A stretch of 64,000 nucleotides of DNA from a virus (taxonomy: Duplodnaviria > Caudoviricetes). Under the pieces are notes generated by a model. That model was given only the letters and a program-made list of their open reading frames with translations, made no database searches and was not told where the DNA came from. Positions 28,684 through 43,457 of the stretch are shown here, in pieces (the first letter of the stretch is position 1; the number at the start of each line of letters is the position of its first letter). A program made the position numbers and the translations under genes. Location: IMG/VR virus record IMGVR_UViG_3300029258_002326, positions 1-64,000 of that record. One strand, 5' to 3'.

Positions 28684-31600
28684 TTGATAGTTACGACACG
28701 CAAGGGGAGAAAGAAGTCTGTAATAACCAAGGAGGAGCTGGCGGCCCATGCCGGTGACATGGTTGACGCCCTGACAGACGCAGAGCTAGAGCTGGTGATG
28801 GGCCTGATAGACGAAGATCCGGAGATTCAGATAGAGCACCACAAGACGATGCGCGGGCACTTGTACCACCGAGAGCCTGTCTCTATGGAGCAATTCATAG
28901 AGGATCCACATTACCTGGGCGAGTCTTGCTCGACTCTCTACCCAGAGCTTAAGAAAGATCTCATAGATCTGTTTGATTATCCATTCAGAGAAGTTGTGCT
29001 CACAGGCGGAATTGGAGTTGGCAAATGCCAACGAGGGGTGAACGAGCTTTATGATCCGGTCATGGGGAGAAGGCTAACTGTAGAAGATGCTGCATCTTTT
29101 GGCAAGTACAAAGCGTGCGCCACGTTCAACAAGGATGAGCGGAAGACAGTGAGTGGAGGGTGCAAAGTATTCGAAAGCGGAAGAAAGAAGGCGGGGGATC
29201 TCGTGCTTGGGAGCGGGAAGAAGATTGGACTAACTCCTGATCACCCTGTCTTGACACCGTGGGGATACAAGCCAGTCGGAGAGCTTAAGAAGGGGGATCT
29301 TGTTGCGACTTCGCGAGAGATGCCCTTACCTGAGATGCCTTTGGCTATTTCTGACAATGAGGTCAAGTGGGTGGGCTACATCTTGGCAGACGGCGGTGTG
29401 ACAACGTCTCGGATTGTCTTCGTAAAGGGTGTTGATGAAATAATCTCAGAGTTTTGGTCTCTGTCGGAATCGCTTGGCGGGGATGTGAAGGAAGAGGATG
29501 TGGATGCTGATGCGCGGAGGGTTCGTGTCCTGGGGCTTGATCGCTTGAGGGATAAATTTGATCTCAAACACAAGTCCAAGGACAAGAGAGTTCCGAGTGA
29601 GTTCTACGGGCTAGACAATCGCCAGCTTGCCTTGTTGCTGAATCGCATTTGGTCGTGTGATGGATGGTTCTGTCGCAGGGATAAGAAAAAGGGCAACTGG
29701 GAGATTGGAATATCCTTAGCCAGTGAGCCGTTCGTGAGGGATATTCAACAGCTCTTGCTTCGTTTTGGGATTCACTCTCGGATGCGTCCGCGTGAGATGG
29801 GGTACACGCACAACGGAGAGAGGAAGCATAGCGATGCTTGGTCTTTGCAGGTGCTGGGTAGGGATGAAGTTATTAGGTTCTTGAATTCGATTGGAAACCT
29901 CGTAGGCAAGGAAGAAGATTGCGAGACTGCGCGGCGCGAACTTGAGTTCGTAAAGGGCAACTCGAACGTGGACATTACCCCCATGAACAGAGAGGTGATG
30001 ACCAGGGTTCGTAAAGAGATCGGGCCGGTGCCCAAGAAGGCGTACTGGCCGCGTCCGGCGCAGGGCTCGCAAATGGGCCACGGGGTGTTCTTGAGATTCG
30101 CTGAGGCGTATGATCTTCCCGAGTGGTGCTCCTGGTGGGGTGGAGTATTCTGGGATGAGGTGGAATCGTATGAGTGCGGCGATGAGTTAGAGCCTGTGTA
30201 TGACATCGAGGTTCCTAAGACGAGGAACTTCTCAGTGCACGGGGTTATCGTTCACAATACGTTCGTGCTCTCAATAGCCATATGCAGGGTGCTTTACGAG
30301 CTGTCTTGCTTAGTGAATCCCCAGAAGACTTTCGGCCTGTCGTCGGGTACGGAGATGGTTATTCCGTTGATCTCAAAGAACCTTCCGCTGGCGCGTGCTG
30401 TCATGAAGACGGCGGTTGACGACAAGATCAAAGAGTCTCCGTATTTCATGAACGAGTTCTCTCCGAAGATCTCCAAGGAAGCCACGCTGTTTCCTCATAA
30501 CATCCGAGTGATCATAGGGTCGTACGGTAGTGAGCGAGTTCTTGGCTCGAACGTTTTCTGTGTTGGGCTTGATGAGTGCCTAATACTAGAGGCAGGTTTG
30601 ACAACGGAAAGAAAAGGTGTTAGGCGATCCATGACAGTTGGAGATCTTCTGGAAATGAGTCCAGAGGACGCTGAAAACTGCAAGGTTGTAGGTTTTGATC
30701 ATGCGGAGAATAAGCTCAAGGCTGGATGGTGGAGAATCAAGAAGTCCACGGTTCAAGAGCTTGTTGAGATCAGGACTGCGCTGGGGTCGGTATCGCCGTC
30801 GAGAAAACATCCCGTTCTTGTCCAAAGAGGAGACTGGCTTGTTTACGTTCATGCGGAGGATGTCGTCCCTGGCGATTTTGTTGTCATGGAGGATCGTGAT
30901 GCCAGCGAAGGGGCAGACTGTAAGCGAAGAGCAGAAGAAAAAACAATCGGAGAAGATGAAGGGTCGAGAGTTATCGGAGGAGACGAAAGAGAAGATGAGA
31001 TCTGCGCAAAAGGCGCGGTACGAGAATGGGTACGTCAATCCGATGAAGGGGAAGACTCAGTCAGAGGAGACGAAGAAGAAAATCAGCGAGGCCCAAAAGG
31101 GGAGGAAGTTCTCCGAGGAACATCGGCGGAAGATCGGAGAGGCGAATCGCAGAAGGAAGATCTCGAAAGAGACGCGGGAGCGAATGAGCGAGGCTCAAAA
31201 GAGCAAGGCACCTGCAAGCGAGGAGCACAGACGGAAGATAAGCGAAGCCAATACAGGCAGGAAGCATACGGACGAAGCTCGTGCGAACATGAGCAAGGCT
31301 CAGAAGGGTCGCGCCCTGTCAGAGGATCACAAAAAGAAGCTGTCAGAGGCGGCCAAGAAGCGCACAGGAGAGGCGAATCACTTCTACGGAAAGACTCACT
31401 CCGAGGAGGCGCGGAAGAAGATGAGAGAGGGTCAGGCGGGTGTACAGCGGAAGCCTCACTCCGAAGAGACAAAGAGAAAGATGAGCGAGTCTCAAAAGGG
31501 GCGCAAGTTTTCCGAGGAGACGAAGGAGAAGATGAGAAATGCTGCGAAGCGTCGTGCAGCCGATCCAGAGTGGCGAAAGAAGATGAGCGAGTCGTCGAAG

Positions 31601-34600
31601 AGGGGCTGGGCAGAGGGCACCATTGGCCAGAACATGCCACCCCGGCACGGAGAGGCGAACCCTTTCTACGGGAAGAAGCACACGGAGGAAACGAAGGCGC
31701 GTCTGAGCGAGGTTGCAAAGGCGAGAGAACCTCGCGTGCATACGGAGGCGTCGAAGGATGCGATTTCCGAGGGGAACATGCGGGCTATCAAGGACGGGAC
31801 GAGGACGTACAAGTTCCGTGCGACGTCTCCGGATGGTGGGGTTGTGCCTTGCCGGACAGAGGCGGAGAAGAGACTAGCCGATCATCTTTGTTCTCAGGAC
31901 GGGGTTGTTTCTGTTGTCGGCGAAGACAAGATGCCGTTTGTGGAGTACGATTTCAACGGCCAATCCAGGATAACGGTTGCGGACTTCATGGTAACAGCAA
32001 GCGACGGTCGAATCATTATCGTAGAAGGGAAGGCGCAGGGGTCGCTATACGGAGAGAGAGAGAGGGCTCGGTTTCTTGCTACATGGGAGCACTGCAAGGC
32101 GTGCGGGTTCGACATGATTATATCATTCAACCATGCAAGGGACCCCGATCTGTCTCTCGGTCCATTTGTGACACAGGAATTTGTGGAGATGGTGAAACAG
32201 GGGTTTGTTCCCATGTCACTGCTTTCGGACAATCGTGCCACTGGGGTTGCGGCAAGGCGAACGGGCTTTGGGCATCACGGGAAAAGAGTAGCTGGAGGAG
32301 ACAGAAAGTATCTGTTCAGCACTGTGTCTCCGGACGGGGTGATCGTCAATTGCAGGACAAGGAACAGCCTGCGTGTAGCCGATCATCTTTGCTCTCAGAG
32401 CGGGGTTGTTTCTGTTGTAGGCGAAGACAAGATGAGTGCTATTTATCACAAGGTGAATGGAGAGGGGCGCCAGACGGTTGCAGACTTCATGGTTACTCGC
32501 AGCGACGGACATATTATTTTTGTGAATGTAGAGAGCAACACGTTTGCAGAGAGCAAGGGCCTCTGTCATCGTATGAATGCAATGTGGGACCATTGCAGGG
32601 CTGTCGGTTGCAGTTTCATGATGGTATTTGCCGATGCGTCCGTGGATCCAAATGTGTGGGAGGGTCCGTTTGTCACGGATGCGTTTGTCGAGCGCGTCAT
32701 GGGCACAGGGGTGATTCGACAAGGATTAATGGCCGATGCCAGAGTTCCTGCGTTGACGGTGGCGTCTCCGAGCGGGAGCACGATCCATTGCGCGACAGAG
32801 AAGGAGATGAGGCTGGCGGAGTGCCTATGTCAGCAAGAGGGCGTGGAGTCCATTTCCTCAACAAAGAGGGAGTGCGTGGCGAGGTTCGAGTTCGAGGGGC
32901 GGGCGCGAAGGGCTGTGGCGGACTTTATTGTTCTCATGCGGGACGGGAGAGAGGTGGTTGTCTATTCCATACATGGGACAAACGCGAGGAGCGTATCATC
33001 AAGGAGTGCGCTCATGGCTATGTGGGATCACTGCAAAGAGATGGGCATGAGCATGTTGCTAGCCCTCAAGGAAGCGAGGAATCCAGATCTGTCCCTTGGT
33101 CCGTTCGTGACGCAGGAGTTCGTGGATGGGTATATGCGCGGAGATGCCAAGAGGAGTGCGCTCATAGACAAAAGGCCAAAGGGAAGGAGACCATCTCCGT
33201 TGAAGGGCAGGAAACTTGGTCCTCGCAAGAAAATGACGAACTTGAGTTCGCAGGAATCCGCCCCGAAAGAACACATGTCGAAGAAATCCCTGTCGGTCTT
33301 TGCCTCGCGGAAGTAGTGTCCGTTTCTGCCCTGCCCGCTGAACAAACATATTCTCTATGCACGGAGCATCAGACGTTCATCGCTGATGGGTTCGTGGTGC
33401 ATAATACGAACTTCCCGCCGAACCGTAAGAGCCAGCAGATCACTACAGCTATGGGCCAGAAGAAGACAAAGGCTCACTTTGATATTGTGGAGAAGGTCTA
33501 CCGGAACTTGGTCCGGCGAATAAAGTCCAGGTTCCAGGTTGCAGGCGGGGATTTCCCTGGGATGATCATCTTGGCTTCTTCGGCTGCTACCCTGGACAGT
33601 TTCACTGAGCGGAAAATCCGGGAGAGCAGGCTTGATTCCTCTGTCTTCGTCCGAGATCACACTCAGTGGACGGCCAAGCCTGGGTCTAACTTCTGCGGGG
33701 AGAAGTTCTGGGTTCTGTGTTCGGCGTCCTCTATGCGCTCTAGGATAATCGGAGACGATGAAGTGAAGCACTTCACCGACGAGTGGCTGGAGGAGAACGA
33801 TTCTTTTTTGATCGACATTCCGGTTGAGTACAAGTCGGACTTCGAGACAGACATTGAGAATGCACTAAGGGACCTTGCTGGTATATCTACTCAGGCTATA
33901 TCGATTTATATCCAGAGGCCCGACGCGGTGGACGCGTGTGTGAGCGAAGAGATGGAGCATCCGTTTACTGCGTATGAGTGGACATCCGGGCAGGCCGGGG
34001 CGTTCAAGTGGAACATTCTGTGTAACATGTTCGAGCGTCGGCTGCCTGGCGGATACACGGAGACAGCGTGGTCCCCCAAGATTAATCCTTCGAAGATGAG
34101 ATGGTGTCACATTGATACATCTCTCTCGGGGGACTGTACGGGTTTCTGTGTTGGTCATATAGACAAGTGGGTTGAGGTAGTAAGGCGAGACGGGGACGGG
34201 GTTCGTTACACGGACCTGGCACCCTCTTACGTCATTGACGTGATGTTGCGAGTGAACCCACCGGCTGGAGAGCAAATCTACATGCCGGACTTGCGTCGTT
34301 TCATTTACGAACTACAGGCACATGGTTATCAGTTCCTTGGGTTTTCGTCGGACACATACCAGTCGGCGGAGATGCACCAGCAAGTAAAGAGAAGGGGGAT
34401 TTCTACCCATATCATATCGACGGATACGTCCACGGATCCTTACGATGAGCTGAAGATGGCGATGTACGAGAACCGGATTACGTACTATCATTATCAGCCA
34501 TTTATTGAGGAAATCAAAGACTTGGAATATGATCGCAACGTGGGCAAGATCGATCATCAGCAGGCCGGGTGTTTTGTCGGAGAGACGCGGATTCCTCTTC

Positions 34601-35223
34601 TGGATGGAAGCTGCCCTATGATCTCAGAGTTGGATGGGGTGGATACGTGGGTGTACTCCTGTACAGAGGGTGGTCGCATTGTTCCGGGCCGAGCAAGGGG
34701 TCGATTAACGAAAGAGGTGACCGAGCTTGTGGATGTGGTTCTGGACAGCGGGGCTGTCGAGAGGTGTACGCATGAGCACCTTTGGATGTTGAGGGACGGG
34801 ACGTACAAGAAGGCATGCGACTTGGATCCTGGCATTGACCGTTTGATGCCGATTGATTTGAATTCTTTTCCGGTTGAGCACAAGGTCAGGCATGTAACTC
34901 CTGTTCGCCTTGATAAGCCGGTGGCTGTGTATGACTTAGAGGTTGAGGAGTATTCCAACTTCTCGCTTTCTTCTGGAGTGTTCGTCCACAACTCCAAAGA
35001 CGTTAGTGACGCAGTAGCGGGTGTGGTGTATGGTTTGATGAAGACATCGACCAAAATCCCTGCGATTGTGGGCGATAGTAAAAGTGCCGCTGTTGAAAAC
35101 GAATACGACTGGGTCTCACCTATGATCCAGACGGACGGCATAAGCGCCGAAGAGCTAAGGGACATGAAGGACGCGGGAGATACAGACGTGTCGGAGTATG
35201 TCCCTATTGTGTTTGGAGACTGA
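28684..35223 (+). CDS. terL: terminase large subunit precursor with three inteins (about 684 aa after splicing)
   Basis: Walker [11 protein letters not shown]|T, Walker B CVGLDE|T, nuclease HIDTSLSGD and KIDH...G|[10 protein letters not shown], each split by an intein; upstream of portal. Confidence 0.93.
29026..30258 (+). mobile_element. intein 1 in TerL Walker A, with LAGLIDADG endonuclease (411 aa)
   Basis: Starts CQRG; block B TPDHPV; GYILADG and IWSCDG motifs; ends VYDIEV...IVHN followed by Thr. Confidence 0.93.
29937..29950 (-). repeat. 14-bp quasi-palindrome copy 7 (inside intein 1)
   Basis: CGAACTTGAGTTCG, coding RELEF. Confidence 0.9.
30899..33316 (+). CDS. nested putative homing endonuclease: NUMOD3 repeats + three TnsA-like PD-(D/E)xK domains (805 aa), +1 frame relative to TerL
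   Basis: GGAGG at 30888-30892, 6 nt before ATG; about 14 (H/F)SEE.K.K(M/I)SE repeats and NPFYGKKH; three copies of CRT..E..LA..L....V...ADF.V...G. Confidence 0.88.
33237..33250 (-). repeat. 14-bp quasi-palindrome copy 8 (inside the dual-coding region)
   Basis: CGAACTTGAGTTCG. Confidence 0.9.
34570..34992 (+). mobile_element. intein 3 (mini-intein, 141 aa) in TerL nuclease domain
   Basis: [13 protein letters not shown]; CTHEHLW; VYDLEV...FVHN followed by Ser; no endonuclease. Confidence 0.93.
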
Positions 35224-35224
35224 T

Positions 35225-38071
35225 ATGGGATTTACCGAACTAGTCAAAGGGCTCTTCAAGAGGGACAGGGATGTCCAGGCAGCAGCTATTGCCAAGGGTA
35301 CGGCGATTGCTACCAACGTCTCTGTTGACAGTATGGATCCGAGTAGCGGGACAGAGGGCGTCAATGCCCTTCAGAGCCAGCTAGCCATCGAGCAAGATCT
35401 GATTTCTCGTTACATAGATTACGAGAATATGGACGACTATGTTGAAACCAGCGCAGCTCTAACGGTGTTCGCGGATGACTCTACTATTCCAGATACCCTC
35501 CATAGGAAGACCGTGTGGGCTACGTCGGAGGATCGGCTCGTTCGCGATCTTCTGAACGACATGCTTCACAGGATGATCCGTATCGAGGAGGACGCCTGGG
35601 TCACAGTTAGGAGCTTGGCAAAGTACGGGAACTTGTACGGGGAGGTTCTGACCACAAAGGGCGGGGTAATAGGTATCAACTGGCTTCCCGCACCGTCGAT
35701 ACGTAGAATAATAAACAGCAAAGGCGTCCTTCTTGGGTTCATCCAAGATGTGTCTGGGCAGTTCAACTACGATGCGGGGGCGCTTGTAGAGGCTCTAGAG
35801 GCTGGCAAGAAGCCCATTCCTGAAAACGAGAACAACTCTGGGATTACCTTCTTCTACCCTTGGGAGATGGTCCATTGGCGGCTGCGCTCCAAGCGGCTTC
35901 GCTCTCCTTACGGGTACGGTGTTCTAGACAGTTCACGGTGGATCTGGAAGCGTCTCCAGTTGATGGAGGACACAGCCCTGGTTCAAAAGCTGACAAGGGC
36001 TCCGGGTCGGTATGCGTTCTACGTGGATACCGGAGACTTGCCGCCTAAAGAAGCGGTGGCTCTTGTCCGCAAGGTTAAGAGCGGATTCAAGAAGAAGCGT
36101 CTGATCGATCCGAGCACAGGCCAGCTGGATCTTCGCAATAACCCGCTGTGCCTAGCGGGTGACACGGAAGTTCCTCTCCTTGATGGGAGTAAAAAAACGA
36201 TAGTCGAGATGGCGGAAGCGTTCGACAGGGGCGAGGAGCAGTGGGTTTACGGCGTTGACAGGAAAAATAACAGCAAGATGGTTCCTGGCAAGGTTGTGTG
36301 GGCAGGTCAGACACGTAAAGACGCTGAGCTAGTGCGCGTTACATTAGATAATGGCGAGTCTTTCAGGGTTACTCCTGATCATAAGTGCATATTGAGAAGC
36401 GGAGATCTGAAGGATGCCCAGGACTTGGTTCCTGGCGAATCCTTGATGCCGTTGCGTAGGACAATCTCTTCTTTTGAGAAGGGAGACACGATGGACGGGT
36501 ATGAGAAGGTCTACGATCCGTCCAGCAAGAAATATGTGTATACGCACAGGATGGTTGTGCGGGAACTAGGGATGAAGGAAAAAGGCAAGCTCACTCATCA
36601 CAACGCAGGGAAGCTGAATAACAATCCTAGTTGCCTTGAGAGCATGACATGGAGAGAGCACTCGGAGCATCATTGTAAACTGGGGCAAATGGGCGGTGCT
36701 AAACTCAGAGAGCTTCGCAAGACGGATAAAGCTCTGGATCAAAAGTTACGAGATGCAGCGTCGAGGACGCTTAAAGAGCGTCACGCTGATCCTGAGTGGA
36801 AAAAGAGGAATGCTGAGGCAGTGCGTCGGAGTAACATCGAGCGTGATAGTGGTAGGTACATCCGTGCCTATAACGATTCTGACAAGCATGTAGAAGACAA
36901 CGCGCAGAGAAGCTCCGCCATGAAGGCGTTCTGGACCGATGATGCCAGGTCTGAGTATTCGGAAACTAGGACGATCAGCTACTCGGATGTCTTCATTTCG
37001 GCGCTAGAGGAATTCGTCAGGAGCAACCCTGGGTCGAGCGCAGACGATGTGGCAGACTTCGTGTCTAGCGATTCTGTTGCTCTAGGTCTTCTCAATGAGG
37101 GAAGTTGCCGCGTGATAAAGAAAGCCCATCGTCATTTGCTTTTAAAGGCGTATAGGGCGCATGGCTATTCTAACTTCAGCGAGTTCAAGGAATCTGCGTG
37201 TTCCTACAATCACAAAGTTGTGTCTGTTGAGCGTCTTTCCGAGAGAGAGGACACGTATACGCTGACTGTTGACTCGTGTCACAACTTTGGCCTTTCTTCT
37301 GGGGTTGTAGTTTGCAACTCGCCATCCGAAGATTTTTGGATTCCTACCCGTGGAGGGAAAGATTCCACAAGGATCGAAGTCATCTCTGGGCCAGATGTTC
37401 AGATGATGGACGACGTGGAATACTTCCAAGGCAAGCTGGTTACATCGACGACGGTTCCGAGGCGCTTCATGGGTCTTGGGGATCCTGGTGACTCTACGAA
37501 CATGATGGCGTCCCAGGATGACGTGAGATTTGCCCGTGCCTGTATGAGGCTCCAGCGTGAGTACGTGCAGGGGCTTGAGAAGGTTGCCCGTATACATCTC
37601 GCGGCGTTGAACATCGATCCCGATTCTGTGCCTTGGCAAATCAAGATGACGGTTCCGTCTGCGATCTTCGAGATGCAGCAGATTGAGGTTATGAATGCCC
37701 AAGCTGGGCTGGCGTCTTCGCTGTCTGATTACATGAGCAAGCCTTGGATTCTCCAACGCGTGTTCAACTTCACGAGAGACGATGCCCAGGCTATGATCCA
37801 GGCGAAACGCGATGAGGAGTCCGGGGATGTTGTCCGGGAAGCCGAAGCGCAAGCGAAGGTCATGAAGTTATTCCCCGAGCTTGAGGGCGCACTCGACGAC
37901 AAAGACGGGGGAGGGAAAGAAGAAAGCGTTTCCCCTAAGAAGGCACCTATAGCGGAGAACGAGGACAGGAGGCTTCTTCGCTCCTTGAGCAAGAAGGCTA
38001 ACGCGATTGAGCGTTCTGTCACTCGGATCAATAAAATGTCACGGATCAACGGGTCCGGAAAGAGGAGTTAG
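35225..38071 (+). CDS. portal protein (T4 gp20-like) precursor with one intein
   Basis: Y..M......AL...ADD; L.LMED......TRAP.R..FYVDTG.LP; EDFWIP.RGG; DDVEYF..KL. Confidence 0.92.
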   Translation: MGFTELVKGLFKRDRDVQAAAIAKGTAIATNVSVDSMDPSSGTEGVNALQSQLAIEQDLISRYIDYENMDDYVETSAALTVFADDSTIPDTLHRKTVWATSEDRLVRDLLNDMLHRMIRIEEDAWVTVRSLAKYGNLYGEVLTTKGGVIGINWLPAPSIRRIINSKGVLLGFIQDVSGQFNYDAGALVEALEAGKKPIPENENNSGITFFYPWEMVHWRLRSKRLRSPYGYGVLDSSRWIWKRLQLMEDTALVQKLTRAPGRYAFYVDTGDLPPKEAVALVRKVKSGFKKKRLIDPSTGQLDLRNNPLCLAGDTEVPLLDGSKKTIVEMAEAFDRGEEQWVYGVDRKNNSKMVPGKVVWAGQTRKDAELVRVTLDNGESFRVTPDHKCILRSGDLKDAQDLVPGESLMPLRRTISSFEKGDTMDGYEKVYDPSSKKYVYTHRMVVRELGMKEKGKLTHHNAGKLNNNPSCLESMTWREHSEHHCKLGQMGGAKLRELRKTDKALDQKLRDAASRTLKERHADPEWKKRNAEAVRRSNIERDSGRYIRAYNDSDKHVEDNAQRSSAMKAFWTDDARSEYSETRTISYSDVFISALEEFVRSNPGSSADDVADFVSSDSVALGLLNEGSCRVIKKAHRHLLLKAYRAHGYSNFSEFKESACSYNHKVVSVERLSEREDTYTLTVDSCHNFGLSSGVVVCNSPSEDFWIPTRGGKDSTRIEVISGPDVQMMDDVEYFQGKLVTSTTVPRRFMGLGDPGDSTNMMASQDDVRFARACMRLQREYVQGLEKVARIHLAALNIDPDSVPWQIKMTVPSAIFEMQQIEVMNAQAGLASSLSDYMSKPWILQRVFNFTRDDAQAMIQAKRDEESGDVVREAEAQAKVMKLFPELEGALDDKDGGGKEESVSPKKAPIAENEDRRLLRSLSKKANAIERSVTRINKMSRINGSGKRS
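36149..37318 (+). mobile_element. portal intein with HNH endonuclease (390 aa)
   Basis: CLAGDTEVPLLDG; VTPDHK; YTHRMV...HH...NN.P.CL..MT..EH..HH; ends VVVCN followed by Ser. Confidence 0.9.
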
Positions 38072-38074
38072 CAA

Positions 38075-38932
38075 ATGCCATTTATCCAAGGATCCAAGCT
38101 GGACAAGTATTACCGTGGCAGCCTAGCGCACCGGAGTCATGCCGTGGACGTGGCTGTAGCGGAGCGATTCGAGGGCAAGAAAGCTCAGGTCATGGTAGTC
38201 CAGGAAGACTCGGCGGTAGTGGTTATGGATAACAGTCCTGTCCTGATCGTTGGTTACGAGATGGACGGGGACATTGCCAAGATCACAAAAGAGTCCATAT
38301 GTAAAGATATACCCGTGATAGAGAGCGGTAACATGGATGCTTTTGTAGCAGGTGAGCTTAGGGACATTGCGAAGAAGATGGCAATGGGCGAGGACGTTTC
38401 ACGAACTCAAGTTCGCGAGCTGGCATCTGTGATGGAGCCGGGCGGGGACTATTGGCTCACTGGCGTTTTGTCCAAAATAGACGAGTCTACTGAGGACTCT
38501 GATTGGTTCAAAATGTACGAGGCCAACCAGGAGAAGGTCCGCACTGCCATGCACGGTAGTATTAGGGCTATCGAGGGGGCGGTCCCGAGTACAAAATACG
38601 CGAGCATTTCCCCTGGAAAGCTCCATGCGTTTGAGGAAGAAATCAGGGAATCCATGGGTGTCATATCGTCCGTTATTCAAGGAATAGTTGACGAATGCGA
38701 CGCGATCATGTTTGATCAAAAGGAAGATGAGTTCTTTGGTGCCACCTGTGAATCGTTGAAAGTTGAAGCGCAAGTCCTCACGGGCTTGCTCGGCAAGGCA
38801 GAAAAGTTGATGCGTTCTGAAGATATGGAGCGCATGTCCGTGGCACATGACAAACTTGCTGGGCGAGCAAAACAAATGGCAGTCGTTGCCGCTTACCTCA
38901 AAAAGCGCAGCGCAAACGAAGTGAGGAGCTAG
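38075..38932 (+). CDS. hypothetical head morphogenesis protein
   Basis: GAGGAG RBS; between portal and protease. Confidence 0.7.
   Translation: MPFIQGSKLDKYYRGSLAHRSHAVDVAVAERFEGKKAQVMVVQEDSAVVVMDNSPVLIVGYEMDGDIAKITKESICKDIPVIESGNMDAFVAGELRDIAKKMAMGEDVSRTQVRELASVMEPGGDYWLTGVLSKIDESTEDSDWFKMYEANQEKVRTAMHGSIRAIEGAVPSTKYASISPGKLHAFEEEIRESMGVISSVIQGIVDECDAIMFDQKEDEFFGATCESLKVEAQVLTGLLGKAEKLMRSEDMERMSVAHDKLAGRAKQMAVVAAYLKKRSANEVRS
38402..38415 (+). repeat. 14-bp quasi-palindrome copy 9 (intragenic)
   Basis: Exact match, coding RTQVR. Confidence 0.9.
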
Positions 38933-38934
38933 CA

Positions 38935-40002
38935 ATGATCACGCGCAAAGTCAAAAGTCTAGATGAAGATCTTAGGTCACTCGGTCTAATCGCAGAGGGC
39001 GAAGAGGTTAACTCCAGCTTGCTGGGTGAGGAATCCACGGAAGAAGCCGTTGCAGAAGACGACGATGCTGAAGAATCCGTAGAAGAGGCCAAGAAGCCTG
39101 CATGTGAAGGCGACGATTGCCCCAAGGCTGACGACGAAGAAGAGGAAGAGAAGGAAGAAAAAGACGAGGAGAAAGAGGAAGGCGCCAAGGAAGAGGATGT
39201 CGAGGATCTAGAGATCGACATGCTTGACGAGGACGACGCTCTTGACTCTGATAACGTTAATATGGAGATGCTCAATGCTATCTCCGAGCTTCCGATTTCC
39301 GAGATGGACACAGATGACATAGCGGACGTCTTAGAGGCGCTCAAAGAGAAGAATCTCCCAGAAGGTGACGAAGTTCTCGCTGAACGCGCAGAAGAAATCG
39401 TTGACGTTCTGGTTGCAGAGGCCGTAGCCAAAAAGACCCGTAGGTCCAAGGCTGGCTCCATGGCTAAAAAAGCATCCTTCCAGTGTCCTCAAGGCACTCG
39501 CAAGGATCCAAAAGATCCCGGTGGCCGTCGTTGTGTAAAAGCGGCGAAAGCTGCGGGCGGTGCTGGCAAGCTCGCCAAAGAGGGTCGCAAAAAAGCTCGC
39601 TGGTCCAAGAGCGGCGGCGGACAGAAGTCCCAGAAGAAATCTGCTCGCTGGGCAGCACGTCGTGAGGATGTAGAGCTATCCCCATTCGCAGCGGAACTCG
39701 CTGGGTTGCTGGAGAACGACGATATTCAAGTCGAGAGCGTAGTGACTATTCGCGGTGAGATCATTGATCGCATCGGTTCCATCATGGAGATGCTCCACGA
39801 GGAATTCCTGGACGAGAATGTCACATCCGTCATGGAAGGCGTCTATGAAGGCGTCGTTGAGGCTATGGACGAAGGTCGCCTTGACGAGAACACCATGGGC
39901 GAAGACGACTTTATTGCAGAGCTTAAAGCTCCTCTCCAGCTTATCGCTAAGTCTCTCGGTCAAATCGAGCAGAACGAAGGTAGTGAACTGGGAAACGAGT
40001 AG
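38935..40002 (+). CDS. acidic prohead core/scaffold-like protein
   Basis: GAGGAG RBS; very D/E-rich with a central basic block; position before the protease. Confidence 0.7.
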   Translation: MITRKVKSLDEDLRSLGLIAEGEEVNSSLLGEESTEEAVAEDDDAEESVEEAKKPACEGDDCPKADDEEEEEKEEKDEEKEEGAKEEDVEDLEIDMLDEDDALDSDNVNMEMLNAISELPISEMDTDDIADVLEALKEKNLPEGDEVLAERAEEIVDVLVAEAVAKKTRRSKAGSMAKKASFQCPQGTRKDPKDPGGRRCVKAAKAAGGAGKLAKEGRKKARWSKSGGGQKSQKKSARWAARREDVELSPFAAELAGLLENDDIQVESVVTIRGEIIDRIGSIMEMLHEEFLDENVTSVMEGVYEGVVEAMDEGRLDENTMGEDDFIAELKAPLQLIAKSLGQIEQNEGSELGNE

Positions 40003-40019
40003 GCCGTCGCAAAGGCGGC
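39990..40019 (+). other. candidate programmed -1 frameshift signal
   Basis: In-phase G_GGA_AAC at 39990-39996, 6-nt spacer, GCCGTC-GCAAA-GGCGGC hairpin; -1 frame open to TGA at 40194-40196. Confidence 0.65.
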
Positions 40020-40212
40020 AAAGAGAGAAGGACGAAGTATTCGTCTGGTCGCAAGGAGGCAGTAGGTTTTGAGTCACTCAAGAAAAGCGCTCGTCCGGAT
40101 GGGAAGAAAACTGATAGGAAAGTCTCCCCAGAAGCCAAGCGGAGGCTCAAGCGAAACCCTCTTAGAAGAATACTCGCACGTCAGAAGGCGTGGTGAAGAA
40201 ACAGGTGATGGA

Positions 40213-41829
40213 ATGCCCCAGGTGCTAATCGAAGCTAGCCCGGTTCAGATGACTCTCACGGAGTCTAAGAACGGGAAATTTGTTGCTCGTGGTGAGTTCG
40301 GACGCGTAGGTATCCCAACTCAAAATGGTCGCATCTATCGTAAAGAGCTGATGAACAGAGAGATCGGCAGACTTTCGGAGGACATCTCTTCTCGTCGGGT
40401 ACTAGGTGAGCTTGACCATCCATCCGACGGTAAGACTTCGCTAAAGCGGGTTTCTCATGTGATTACCGATCTGACAGTCAACGATGACGGTCTGATTATC
40501 GGAGAGGCAGAGATTCTGGATACCGCAGAGGGTAAGAATCTCAAGGCCCTCATCGCTGCCAATGTTCAGATAGGCGTTTCCTCTCGTGGATTCGGGAGCA
40601 CTCGCCCATCTGACGATCCCAAGGTGGAAGGCGATGTTGTCCAAGATGACTTCGTTCTGAAGACATGGGATTTCGTAGCTGATCCTGCGGTCAAGACAGC
40701 GCTTCCTGAGATCTTCATCGAGGATGTTAACGAGAAAGAGGATGCAGCAGATCTGTTCTTGGCTGAGTTCCCTGAGATTGCAGGGAAGATCCAAGAGGAC
40801 GCCAGGGTGAAGGCCCAGGCAGAGATCGACGCTACTGCCAAGGAAGAACTCCGCAGGGAAATGGCGGAGGGATTCGAGCAGCGTTTAGCGGATGCAATCA
40901 CTGGTGTGCGTGCGGATCTCACTGAGTCCATCCGTGAAGAGTTCCAGTCCGATCCAGAGGTAGGCGGGGCGAAAGGCGTCCTGGCTGCTATCTCTGAGAT
41001 GGTGTCTGCGTACAACTCGGTTCCAGACGAGGACGCTGTACGCGATTCTCTCCGAGCTTCCGAGCTAGAGGTATCCGAGGCAAGGCAGCAAGCCAAGGAT
41101 GCCGAGAAAGCGGCGCTGAGAGCGCAGTGCGAGCTGGTTATCGAGAGGAACATCGGCGAGCACCCGATGCGTGATGCGTTTAGGAATATCATCGAGGGTG
41201 TAGAATTCACCAGCGTGGATGACGCAGAACGCAAGATTGGCATCATGATCGAGGAAGCCCCTGACCTGAGTGAGGGGTATGTGTCTGATGCAGAGGCGGA
41301 GCTTCGCGAGGAGAACGCCAAGTTAAAAGGTCAAATTTCTCTCCTGTCGGAGAAGACTGATACGTTGAATGATAAATTGTTGAAAGCTGTAGAAGTGGGT
41401 ACGGAGGCCAGCGATCAATTACAGGCGGCGCGAAACGCCTTGGAAGAGTTCGATGGCAAACTTGAGGCTATGACGGAAGAGCGCGACGAAGCATTAGCCG
41501 AGGCGGATAATGCGGAGAAGCGTTCCAGGTTGGAAGCCTACAAGGTCCAAAAGGTTGCTGGATTGTCTAATGGTAGACAGTTGATGAGCGTAATGGAGGG
41601 TGTAACTTCCAAGAGCGCAATTGATACGTTGGTTGAAGAGAGGGGAGTTCAAGGGATCCCAGGAGGAGATCTGGAGGCTATGCGGGCAAGGTTGTCCCGT
41701 GGCCAGGCCATGTCCGAGAGGGAATTGAACGAGTCGCATCAAGCTAAGCCTTCCGCATCTGGTCGTCCACAGGTCGACGAGTTCGGTAACAACATGAGCG
41801 AGATGCAACGCCTAGCCGGTCTGGAGTAA
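40213..41829 (+). CDS. prohead protease (T4 gp21-like) fused to coiled-coil scaffold
   Basis: NGRIY; LGELDHP; VSH.I; GVSSRG.GS; DFVADP; long acidic coiled-coil C-terminus. Confidence 0.9.
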   Translation: MPQVLIEASPVQMTLTESKNGKFVARGEFGRVGIPTQNGRIYRKELMNREIGRLSEDISSRRVLGELDHPSDGKTSLKRVSHVITDLTVNDDGLIIGEAEILDTAEGKNLKALIAANVQIGVSSRGFGSTRPSDDPKVEGDVVQDDFVLKTWDFVADPAVKTALPEIFIEDVNEKEDAADLFLAEFPEIAGKIQEDARVKAQAEIDATAKEELRREMAEGFEQRLADAITGVRADLTESIREEFQSDPEVGGAKGVLAAISEMVSAYNSVPDEDAVRDSLRASELEVSEARQQAKDAEKAALRAQCELVIERNIGEHPMRDAFRNIIEGVEFTSVDDAERKIGIMIEEAPDLSEGYVSDAEAELREENAKLKGQISLLSEKTDTLNDKLLKAVEVGTEASDQLQAARNALEEFDGKLEAMTEERDEALAEADNAEKRSRLEAYKVQKVAGLSNGRQLMSVMEGVTSKSAIDTLVEERGVQGIPGGDLEAMRARLSRGQAMSERELNESHQAKPSASGRPQVDEFGNNMSEMQRLAGLE

Positions 41830-41858
41830 CTAGAGCGGCCTAACCAACGGAGAAATTG

Positions 41859-43457
41859 ATGGAAGCTAGAGAACTATTCGAGCAAGCCGGAGCCAAGACT
41901 GTTTTTGACGAGTCTTATACTGGTGCATGCGTCCAAAAATGGGGAAAGATGCTTGGCGGCATCGAGGACACCCATCTGAAGAAAAACACCGCTGTCCTTT
42001 TGGAGAATGAGCTTCAACATTTGAAGAGCTTCAATGAGGATACTCTATCCACAAACGCAGGCGCGTTCACGAAATACGTGTTCCCGATCCTGCGCAGGGT
42101 TTTCCCGAATCTGATTGCCAACCAGTTGGTATCGGTTCAGCCCATGACCTCTCCTGTTTCCGGCATCTTCTACTACGAGAAAAAGTACGAAGATCGCAAA
42201 GGAACCAAGATTCCTCAGACACCTATTGCTGATCTTCCGACAGCCATGGGTTACGACGGTGAATTGGCAGCAGGCGACAATCTCAATCAGAACTTCGCGA
42301 AGTATTACAGCTCTGAGTTCGTAGACTACGACGTAGTTTGCACAGACACAGGAACGTCCACAGACGCCCTGACCCAGGCTGGAACCAACTGCCGTGGAGC
42401 AGCATGGTCTCCCATCCGTGACAACGGAACAGTCGGACAGCGCACTTTCTACGTCAAAGCGTACTACCGCTTTGTCGATCCTGATGCTGCATCGGCTCCA
42501 ACCGAAGCCATCGCCACAATGGATGCTTCTGGCAATCTGATCGACAATACTGCCACTGGCAACACCGTTGGAACATTCACCATCGCCACAGGCGCATGGG
42601 CGATTGATCCTGTCGGTTCCGGTGGTACAGCTGCTGGCGCATTGTTCGTCGACAACACCGTCATCTACCTCCAGTATTTCGTGAACTGGGAACTCGTAGG
42701 CCAGACTTCTGGTGCCGAGATTCCTTCGATTGGTCTGGACATCACTCTATCGACCGTTCAAGCCGAGAGTCGTAAGCTCAAAGCTCGTTGGTCCGTAGAA
42801 GCCATGGACGACCTCAAAGCCCTTCACGGCTTGGATGCAGAGACAGAGTTTGTTTCTACGTTCTCCAACGAGGTTCTTCTGGAGACAGACCGCGAGATCA
42901 TCACAGACCTCGTGAACAACGCCGGTCACACCGCTGCTTACACCTACAGCTCGACTGTTCCTGGTGAAGTAGAGAGCATTCGCCAGCTGCTGACTCAAAT
43001 CAGTGCAGTGTCCGCTCGCATTCACAAAACAACCACTCGCGCTCCCGCGAACTTCCTGGTTGTTTCGACTGCGGTCGGTGGACTCCTGGACCAACTCTCG
43101 ACACACGGCGACTTCGCCTCCATCGAGCAGAATATCCAGAGCCCAAGTTACGGTCCTGTGACTGCCAACTTCGGCATCACCAGAATCGGAACTCTGCTTC
43201 GCAAGTATGCGGTCTACCAAGATCCTTACATGGCGGACGGACAGATCCTCGTCGGTCTCAAAGGCAACAGCTTCCTGGACGCTGGTTACGTGTACGCACC
43301 TTACGTGCCACTACAACTGACACCAACCTTCATGGATCCGAACGACTTCACATTCCGTAAGGGTGTCCGCACTCGTTACGCAACTAAGATGTTGCGTCCT
43401 GAGTACTACGGAGTGATCAACGTTTCGGGTCTGCCTTCGGTGACAACTAGTCTCTAA
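41859..43457 (+). CDS. major capsid protein (T4 gp23-like)
   Basis: PILRRVFPNLIA...VSVQPM..P...IFY; A.SRKLKARWS.EA..DL...HGLDAE; YAPYVPL; G..TRYA. Confidence 0.95.
   Translation: MEARELFEQAGAKTVFDESYTGACVQKWGKMLGGIEDTHLKKNTAVLLENELQHLKSFNEDTLSTNAGAFTKYVFPILRRVFPNLIANQLVSVQPMTSPVSGIFYYEKKYEDRKGTKIPQTPIADLPTAMGYDGELAAGDNLNQNFAKYYSSEFVDYDVVCTDTGTSTDALTQAGTNCRGAAWSPIRDNGTVGQRTFYVKAYYRFVDPDAASAPTEAIATMDASGNLIDNTATGNTVGTFTIATGAWAIDPVGSGGTAAGALFVDNTVIYLQYFVNWELVGQTSGAEIPSIGLDITLSTVQAESRKLKARWSVEAMDDLKALHGLDAETEFVSTFSNEVLLETDREIITDLVNNAGHTAAYTYSSTVPGEVESIRQLLTQISAVSARIHKTTTRAPANFLVVSTAVGGLLDQLSTHGDFASIEQNIQSPSYGPVTANFGITRIGTLLRKYAVYQDPYMADGQILVGLKGNSFLDAGYVYAPYVPLQLTPTFMDPNDFTFRKGVRTRYATKMLRPEYYGVINVSGLPSVTTSL

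Follow-up and report, generated by a model that had tools for sequence, protein, structure and literature searches.

A conserved putative -1 frameshift site probably joins an acidic protein to a small basic tail beside the prohead protease gene of uncultivated phages

We analysed 64,000 nucleotides (nt) of viral DNA (Duplodnaviria; Caudoviricetes), hereafter the window, which form the first 64 kb of the 157,265-bp IMG/VR record IMGVR_UViG_3300029258_002326; the record has direct terminal repeats. Our subject is the junction between the gene for an acidic protein of 355 amino acids (aa), here called the carrier, and the gene for a gp21-like prohead protease that follows it. A preliminary description, made from the sequence of the window, had proposed that a programmed -1 ribosomal frameshift near the end of the carrier gene adds a very basic tail to an acidic head core protein. 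Through comparison of the window with related loci in other viral contigs, we found that the putative shift site, a downstream hairpin and an open -1 frame recur beside the same protease gene. The elements of the junction in the window are the following.

38935..40002, plus strand: acidic carrier protein, 355 aa, in the position of T4 gp68, between portal and prohead protease
39990..39996, plus strand: slippery heptamer G_GGA_AAC in X_XXY_YYZ phase (from the sequence; conserved in relatives)
40000..40002, plus strand: 0-frame stop TAG, one codon past the heptamer (from the sequence)
39996..40196, plus strand: extension in the -1 frame: 66 post-shift codons (39996-40193) and a TGA stop (codon pattern, conserved family)
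40003..40019, plus strand: predicted stimulatory hairpin of 6 bp with a 5-nt loop, 6 nt past the heptamer and with no U-run after it (minimum free energy and centroid folds)
40030..40046, plus strand: second predicted hairpin, 7 bp, inside the -1 frame extension (fold of the window only)
40203..40208, plus strand: Shine-Dalgarno (SD)-like AGGTGA for the protease gene, just 3' of the -1 frame stop (from the sequence)
40213..41829, plus strand: prohead protease (Peptidase_S77, gp21-like) with a fused coiled-coil scaffold-like region (Pfam PF03420, 1e-12; PHROG 207, 6e-38)

The carrier gene terminates CTG GGA AAC GAG TAG. A TGA in the -1 frame (39984-39986) lies just 5' of the heptamer, and the -1 open reading frame (ORF) that follows, at 39987-40196, has 68 codons counted from the heptamer and ends with the stop TGA 40194-40196, leaving 16 nt before the protease ATG at 40213. 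Neither ATG, GTG nor TTG occurs anywhere in this ORF, and its sole rare start is an ATA at codon 60. The preliminary description had placed the gene end, the heptamer, the hairpin, the upstream TGA, the 68-codon ORF without ATG and the protease ATG correctly. In-phase XXXYYYZ heptamers are common in the window (44 in its 64 putative plus-strand ORFs, or 17,703 codons, 27 of them with A or T as Y), and the weight of the argument therefore rests on comparative evidence. Among these 44, only the heptamer at 39990 opens a -1 frame that reaches more than 60 nt past the 0-frame stop. The window by itself thus does no more than suggest a frameshift. An assembly indel at the shift site is unlikely, because independent assemblies (Logan contigs) of three public runs, some of which are possibly the source sample, match positions 39700-40400 with 0 differences and 0 gaps. 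Among the public runs listed as carrying the sequence, none was of RNA.

Searches of viral contigs with the carrier returned 6 loci at 51-62% identity, and searches with the aligned -1 peptide returned 21; combined, they define the clade of the window, which has 16 distinct -1 ORF sequences including that of the window itself. In all 16, a slippery heptamer stands in phase, with no codon or a single one between it and the stop; it is G_GGA_AAC in 15 and A_AAA_AAC in one, locus L030. Together with more distant loci described below, the set comprises 25 distinct loci including the window, and 19 of these have an in-phase heptamer (G_GGA_AAC in 16; A_AAA_AAC, G_GGT_TTT and A_AAA_AAA in a single locus each). 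The remaining six lack a heptamer and give the peptide its own start codon. The preliminary description had staked its proposal on homologous loci keeping the heptamer, the hairpin and the open -1 frame, and this conservation proved strong, with the heptamer at 19 and the open tail frame at 25 of the 25 loci. Within the clade, the -1 ORF always ends 1-17 nt from the protease ATG. An equivalent (A)GG(G)TGAT precedes the protease ATG in the relatives, and the gap to that ATG is 1-4 nt in most of them, so the SD-like motif overlaps the final tail codons. The -1 ORF of L021, like that of the window, has no ATG, GTG or TTG, and the other loci have possible starts at varying positions. As a separate observation, an SD-like word (GAGG, GGAG, AGGA or GGGG) lies at -16 to -5 before the heptamer in 13 of the 19 frameshift-type loci, as against 25% of in-phase controls (nominal p = 7e-5; the sequences share ancestry, so the test lacks independence). 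The window offers no more than AAGGT in that interval, with no strict SD-like match.

Substitutions in the clade fall in the pattern expected of a translated -1 frame. Mean pairwise differences at its codon positions 1, 2 and 3 are 0.239, 0.172 and 0.453, and in the second half of the ORF they are 0.219, 0.108 and 0.434. Judged by this pattern, the -1 frame is evolving as a protein-coding frame. The tail is also better kept than the protein that would carry it, mean amino-acid identity being 74% for the tail versus 54% for the carrier body. We also noted that an ATG at 40099-40101, which lies in the protease frame and arises from the tail codons GAT-GGN, is invariant in 16/16 clade members; genes of the window use GAT and GAC equally (264 each).

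The RNA 3' of the heptamer is predicted to be structured at most of the sites that were folded. In the window, 40003-40008 pairs with 40014-40019 through five G-C pairs and one G-U pair, and the 6-nt spacer contains the 0-frame stop; the 74-nt region that holds this hairpin has a z-score of -2.38, with 4 of 200 shuffles folding as well. For 12 clade sequences, RNAalifold returned an extended hairpin of 21 bp beginning 8 nt past the heptamer. In the alignment of this hairpin, 92.9% of cells pair, a share that drops to 37-50% if the 3' partners are displaced by 1-3 columns; six of its pairs show changes on both sides (compensatory), and none of 500 shuffles attained its covariation score. A short local hairpin of 6-7 bp with a 6-nt spacer takes its place in the window, L014 and L032, built in each from different sequences, and L031 has a long hairpin that arises from an insertion. 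Across the relatives, stems begin 5-8 nt past the heptamer. When the sites were folded singly, 9 of 13 reached z <= -2, the weaker ones being L013, L026, L012 and L047; strong 3' hairpins are present at L033 (z = -6.3) and L034 (z = -3.2), both outside the clade. No Rfam family matches the site. A search of the plus strand there for a terminator-like site, a promoter-like site or a U-run found none, so the hairpin is not an intrinsic terminator.

The tail extends beyond the clade. A tail profile run against 1.84 billion representative proteins gave 12 matches, 11 of them ORFs of 43-77 aa and one an unrelated repeat protein, and no in-frame fusion of the tail to a larger protein was present in that set. 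The short database ORFs begin at differing points within the conserved block, which is the expected output of gene callers when the true N-terminus has no start codon. Two of them, used as queries, led to 16 further viral-contig loci, 9 of them distinct. Three of these are of the frameshift type: L033 has G_GGT_TTT in phase with TAA directly after it, L034 has G_GGA_AAC followed by one codon and TGA, and L047 has A_AAA_AAA followed by one further codon and TGA. At L039, L042, L044 and L046, which lack the heptamer, a GTGA or ATGA start/stop overlap leads into a separate gene of ~76 aa after an ORF of 683-829 codons. At L035 and L036, an acidic ORF of 326-336 codons ends with an in-frame TAG, and 8 codons past it the homologue starts at an ATG of its own. 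The 25 distinct loci thus divide into 19 of the frameshift type and 6 with a free-standing gene of ~75 aa. The carriers of the distant lineages are all acidic (21-30% Asp + Glu) and cannot be aligned with the window carrier by BLAST; across lineages with such unalignable carriers the tail is conserved down to 47% identity. A Pfam S77 protease gene lies 3' of the tail in the window and in all five distant loci scanned (L033, L034, L035, L039 and L047), with two small ORFs intervening at L033. By these sequence comparisons, the tail belongs to a conserved family of small, predicted basic peptides whose coding sequence always adjoins a gp21-like prohead protease gene; the phages concerned are a set of uncultivated ones with head genes of the T4 type. 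Neither a tail ORF nor a frameshift site is present in L002-L005, whose proteases are more distantly related (~40% identity), and there the upstream gene abuts the protease gene.

In a tree of the proteases, the clade of the window forms one group (support 100/99) with L030 nested within it, and the sister of the pair L035/L036, both with an own ATG, is L047, a locus of the frameshift type (support 92/89). Because the tree mixes the arrangements, the frameshift and free-standing forms have interconverted. Two protease ORFs are unusual in themselves: that of L027 runs 930 codons from the protease ATG and has a very long branch in the tree, and at L033 (3404-5179) the S77 domain sits at the C-terminal end of a 592-aa ORF. 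This suggests insertions or fusions in the protease gene.

The two parts of the predicted fusion differ sharply in charge. The carrier has an isoelectric point (pI) of 4.3 and a net charge of about -52; no Pfam or PHROG family matched it, and its homologues comprise 15 distinct sequences at 40-53% identity. AlphaFold2 (AF2) models it as helical, apart from an acidic N-terminal region that is disordered (predicted local distance difference test score, pLDDT, 68; predicted template modelling score, pTM, 0.27), and a fold search with this model gave no match at E <= 0.001 in BFVD or PDB, a result made little informative by the pTM of 0.27. The 66-residue tail has a pI of 11.9 and a net charge of about +20, with 26 Lys + Arg and 6 Asp + Glu. 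Modelled alone by AF2 it is mostly disordered, with two short C-terminal helices. No significant structural neighbour of that model was found, the tail and its free-standing homologues have no match in Pfam or PHROG, and the ESM Atlas yielded unnamed clusters only, at scores <=0.76. As a side observation on the carriers, those of L013, L015, L021, L022, L024 and L030 have a zinc-ribbon-like insert, CPKC...C..C, in the variable acidic region (alignment A8, columns ~70-100), and the window carrier holds only part of it. Two more cysteines, in the central basic block of the carrier, are invariant in 16/16.

Directly before the basic block of the tail peptide, 23 of the 25 distinct loci have L/I-x-E, which is placed a few residues past the shift site in the frameshift forms and at the end of a leader of 8-17 residues in the free-standing forms. 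T4 gp21 cuts after L/I-X-E, according to parts of PMC9026906. The capsid proteins also have L-x-E in their N-terminal region (17/17 sequences), and the window carrier contains 15 L/I-x-E motifs where shuffles lead one to expect 7.9 (a fraction of 0.0035 of them had as many or more).

We consider it very probable that a real -1 programmed ribosomal frameshift operates at this site and yields isoforms of 355 and 420 aa. Most ribosomes would end at TAG 40000 and release the 355-aa acidic protein. Some would slip back one base on GGA-AAC and then read 39996-40193 in the -1 frame, and the resulting 420-aa isoform would consist of residues 1-354 followed by the strongly basic, predicted largely disordered tail of 66 residues. 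Several observations weigh against this account or parts of it. In Escherichia coli, an A-site AAC codon shifts poorly, and efficiency may be low. The hairpin of the window is short (6 bp, region z = -2.38), unlike the 21-bp hairpin of most relatives, and no significant structure is present at L012 (z = 0.10) or L047 (z = 0.45). The tail folds poorly alone (pLDDT 53) and matches no known family, so its function is drawn from context and composition only. Before the basic block, the window (GKE) and L012 (LGA) lack L/I-x-E. Finally, fusion is not essential to the peptide, which is a separate gene in 6 of the 25 loci (GTGA/ATGA overlap or own ATG); a GTG stands at codon offset 10 of the -1 ORF in eight loci; and L030, the sole locus with A_AAA_AAC, also has an ATG overlapping the stop (TAATG, L030:2965-2980). 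L030 might use coupled initiation instead of frameshifting, and it could be an intermediate between the two.

The last three of these observations would also suit an independent small gene in the -1 frame, translated, like its free-standing homologues, by termination-reinitiation or from a non-canonical or internal start, with no transframe fusion being made. We regard this as improbable, since the -1 ORFs of the window and L021 contain no ATG, GTG or TTG, start positions elsewhere are not conserved, and the offset-10 GTG lies inside the conserved stem, only 2 nt past a GAGG. Moreover, four heptamer types occur exactly in phase at 19 loci, and reinitiation has no need of them. Slippage of RNA polymerase, which would make a -1 shifted mRNA, is less probable still. 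The homopolymer runs at L047 (A7) and L030 (A6) are compatible with it, but the runs are merely 3-4 nt in 17 of the 19 loci, including the window (GGG AAA; GGG TTTT in L033), and the conserved 3' hairpin at 5-8 nt suits ribosomal frameshifting. Such transcriptional slippage depends on long runs of A or T, and our low regard for it rests partly on that requirement.

Two further explanations seem to us to have the smallest chance of being right. One is that the 210-nt gap is a non-coding spacer or a regulatory RNA that acts on protease translation or mRNA stability, the heptamer and open frame being there by chance. Hairpins are indeed predicted in the gap, in-phase heptamers are common in the window, and the ORF runs at its end into the ribosome-binding site of the protease gene. 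Against this, substitutions concentrate at third positions of the -1 frame, the peptide is kept to 47% identity where carriers are unalignable by BLAST, free-standing homologues exist, and there is neither an Rfam match nor a terminator at the site. The other, just as improbable, is that the protease starts upstream (TTG 40069 or ATG 40099) and uses this DNA as an N-terminal extension, or that the TAG is read through. Carrier and protease are in one frame, the protease frame is open for 49 codons before ATG 40213 (in the 15 clade relatives, for 40-81 codons except at L032, where it is 11), and the ATG at 40099-40101 does not vary in the clade. Yet coding sequence would not vary most at codon position 2, as this DNA does when read in the protease frame; the Pfam S77 match starts with the Met encoded at 40213, and a conserved SD-like motif precedes that codon. 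The preliminary description had itself allowed for a protease start at 40069, an option that does not stand, given that the protease frame 5' of ATG 40213 does not evolve as coding. Read-through of the TAG was rejected: a second in-frame TAG follows at 40063, L013 likewise has a stop there, and the 0 frame is not conserved.

If the -1 frameshift is real, its setting offers some guidance to its purpose. The Pfam and PHROG matches and the ORF list place the shift site in a T4-type head module, in which the neighbours of the carrier and protease genes are these.

35198-38071, plus strand: portal protein (Portal_T4, intein-interrupted; Pfam)
38075-38932, plus strand: ORF of 285 aa (ORF list)
41856-43457, plus strand: gp23-like major capsid protein (ORF list, Pfam/PHROG)

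The carrier gene thus lies where T4 has the genes for gp67 and gp68, between portal (gp20) and protease (gp21). The label of head core protein, given in the preliminary description, draws on gene position only: the gene order (portal, two ORFs, S77 protease, gp23-like capsid) fits it, and homology to gp67 or gp68 was not detected, the probability by hhalign being <1% for each of tail versus gp67, tail versus gp68 and carrier body versus gp68. At 285 and 355 aa, the two ORFs here also differ from gp67 and gp68 (69 and 140 aa, with no frameshift). In Aeromonas phage 25, where their genes have this same position, gp67 has an acidic C-terminus and gp68 a basic C-terminal half, in frame, an acidic-plus-basic pairing that resembles that of carrier and tail; this likeness is an analogy, not homology.

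From this setting we infer that the basic peptide is a component of the prohead core or an internal protein. Parts of PMC9026906 and PMC3012670 describe the internal proteins of T4 as directed to the prohead core by N-terminal capsid targeting sequences of ~10 residues, which gp21 removes. By analogy, fusion by frameshift would let the acidic core protein bring a set fraction of basic peptide into the assembling prohead, and in most relatives the protease would then release the peptide at the L/I-x-E a few residues past the shift site, much as it does the T4 capsid-targeting propeptide. In the window the motif is missing, so the release step is not supported there, and release in the window is uncertain. 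One speculative possibility, to which we give rather less than even weight, is that the frameshift is a dosing and delivery device, which sets a small number of basic peptide copies per prohead; the copies would be freed at L/I-x-E and either stay with the DNA or organise the core, and lineages would switch freely between fused and free-standing forms. Were this so, a whole protein and a leader of ~10 residues would be interchangeable capsid-targeting signals, and the freed peptide would stay with the DNA, for charge neutralisation or ejection, or would organise the core.

The parallel with the T4 internal proteins has clear limits. As in T4, an N-terminal part ending in L/I-x-E and removed afterwards would lead a basic peptide into the prohead core, and the correspondence is closest in the free-standing relatives, whose leaders of 8-17 residues end in this motif and whose gene adjoins that for a gp21-like protease. 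Unlike in T4, the "leader" of the frameshift lineages is a whole protein of 300-390 aa, and there is no Pfam or PHROG homology. The window tail, having neither an N-terminus of its own nor L/I-x-E, lacks the propeptide that characterizes T4-type internal proteins.

With respect to the frameshift itself, a -1 shift close to the 3' end of a head gene occurs in phage T7 (gene 10A/10B) and reportedly also in Lactobacillus phage A2, in the gene for its major head protein. As in both, ribosomes here would shift a few codons short of the stop in a gene for a head-structure protein, and the predicted product is a minor isoform extended at its C-terminus. In T7 and A2, however, the gene is that of the major capsid protein, whereas here it encodes a nonhomologous acidic protein in the place of a prohead-core gene, and the added module, unlike theirs, is found elsewhere as a gene of its own. 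In the tail assembly chaperones, some lineages are said to have swapped the frameshift for another arrangement, as Vladimirov et al. reportedly described in 2022. The chaperone frameshifts, including lambda G/GT, were treated by Xu et al. in 2004, as related in parts of PMC10885494. Both lambda G/GT and the present case concern a conserved -1 frameshift in morphogenesis genes of double-stranded DNA phages, for which conservation among sequences that are otherwise dissimilar is the main evidence. They differ in that lambda G/GT belongs to the tail module, has an extension that is neither basic nor disordered and has no link to a prohead protease, whereas the present site belongs to the head module. 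The -1 frameshift of E. coli dnaX provides the bacterial type of cassette, a heptamer with a 3' stem-loop (parts of PMC4344849 and PMC5600365). The putative cassette here resembles it in both elements and in the upstream SD-like motif of 13 of the 19 loci, for which the window has no strict match; the dnaX shift shortens its product, whereas the one proposed here would lengthen it.

Frameshifts of the -1 type that extend phage structural proteins, namely tail chaperones and major capsid proteins, are already known, as parts of PMC10885494 set out. In the literature that we searched, supplements excluded, no report of a frameshift in a prohead-core gene was found. Few phage recoding sites lie beyond tail chaperones and major capsid genes, and the present one would add to them a well-conserved family in which the heptamer takes four forms and the hairpin covaries. 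The comparison also defines a family of small basic peptides, so far without annotation, that is tied to the gene for the prohead protease. Gene callers miss the tail, and databases carry only truncated ORFs of 43-77 aa. Since the same payload appears to be delivered either by frameshift fusion or from a separate gene, these phages may offer a natural comparison of what frameshifting gains, be it stoichiometry, targeting or both.

The window is otherwise distant from deposited phages. Neither blastn of its DNA nor tblastn of the tail peptide found a match among 50,697 deposited phage records, and its capsid protein is <40% identical to that of any deposited phage. No tRNA genes were found in the window. 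The plus strand carries all of its long ORFs, and the GC skew is +0.1 to +0.3 across nearly the whole of positions 1-64000 (G over C on the plus strand). The capsid ORF was listed from TTG 41856; alignment of relatives suggests that the conserved N-terminus starts at the next ATG codon (M-E-A-R). In the portal gene, the Pfam Intein_splicing match covers residues 325-707, and Portal_T4 matches flank it on both sides. Immediately 5' of that gene lies an ORF of 2,179 codons (28684-35223).

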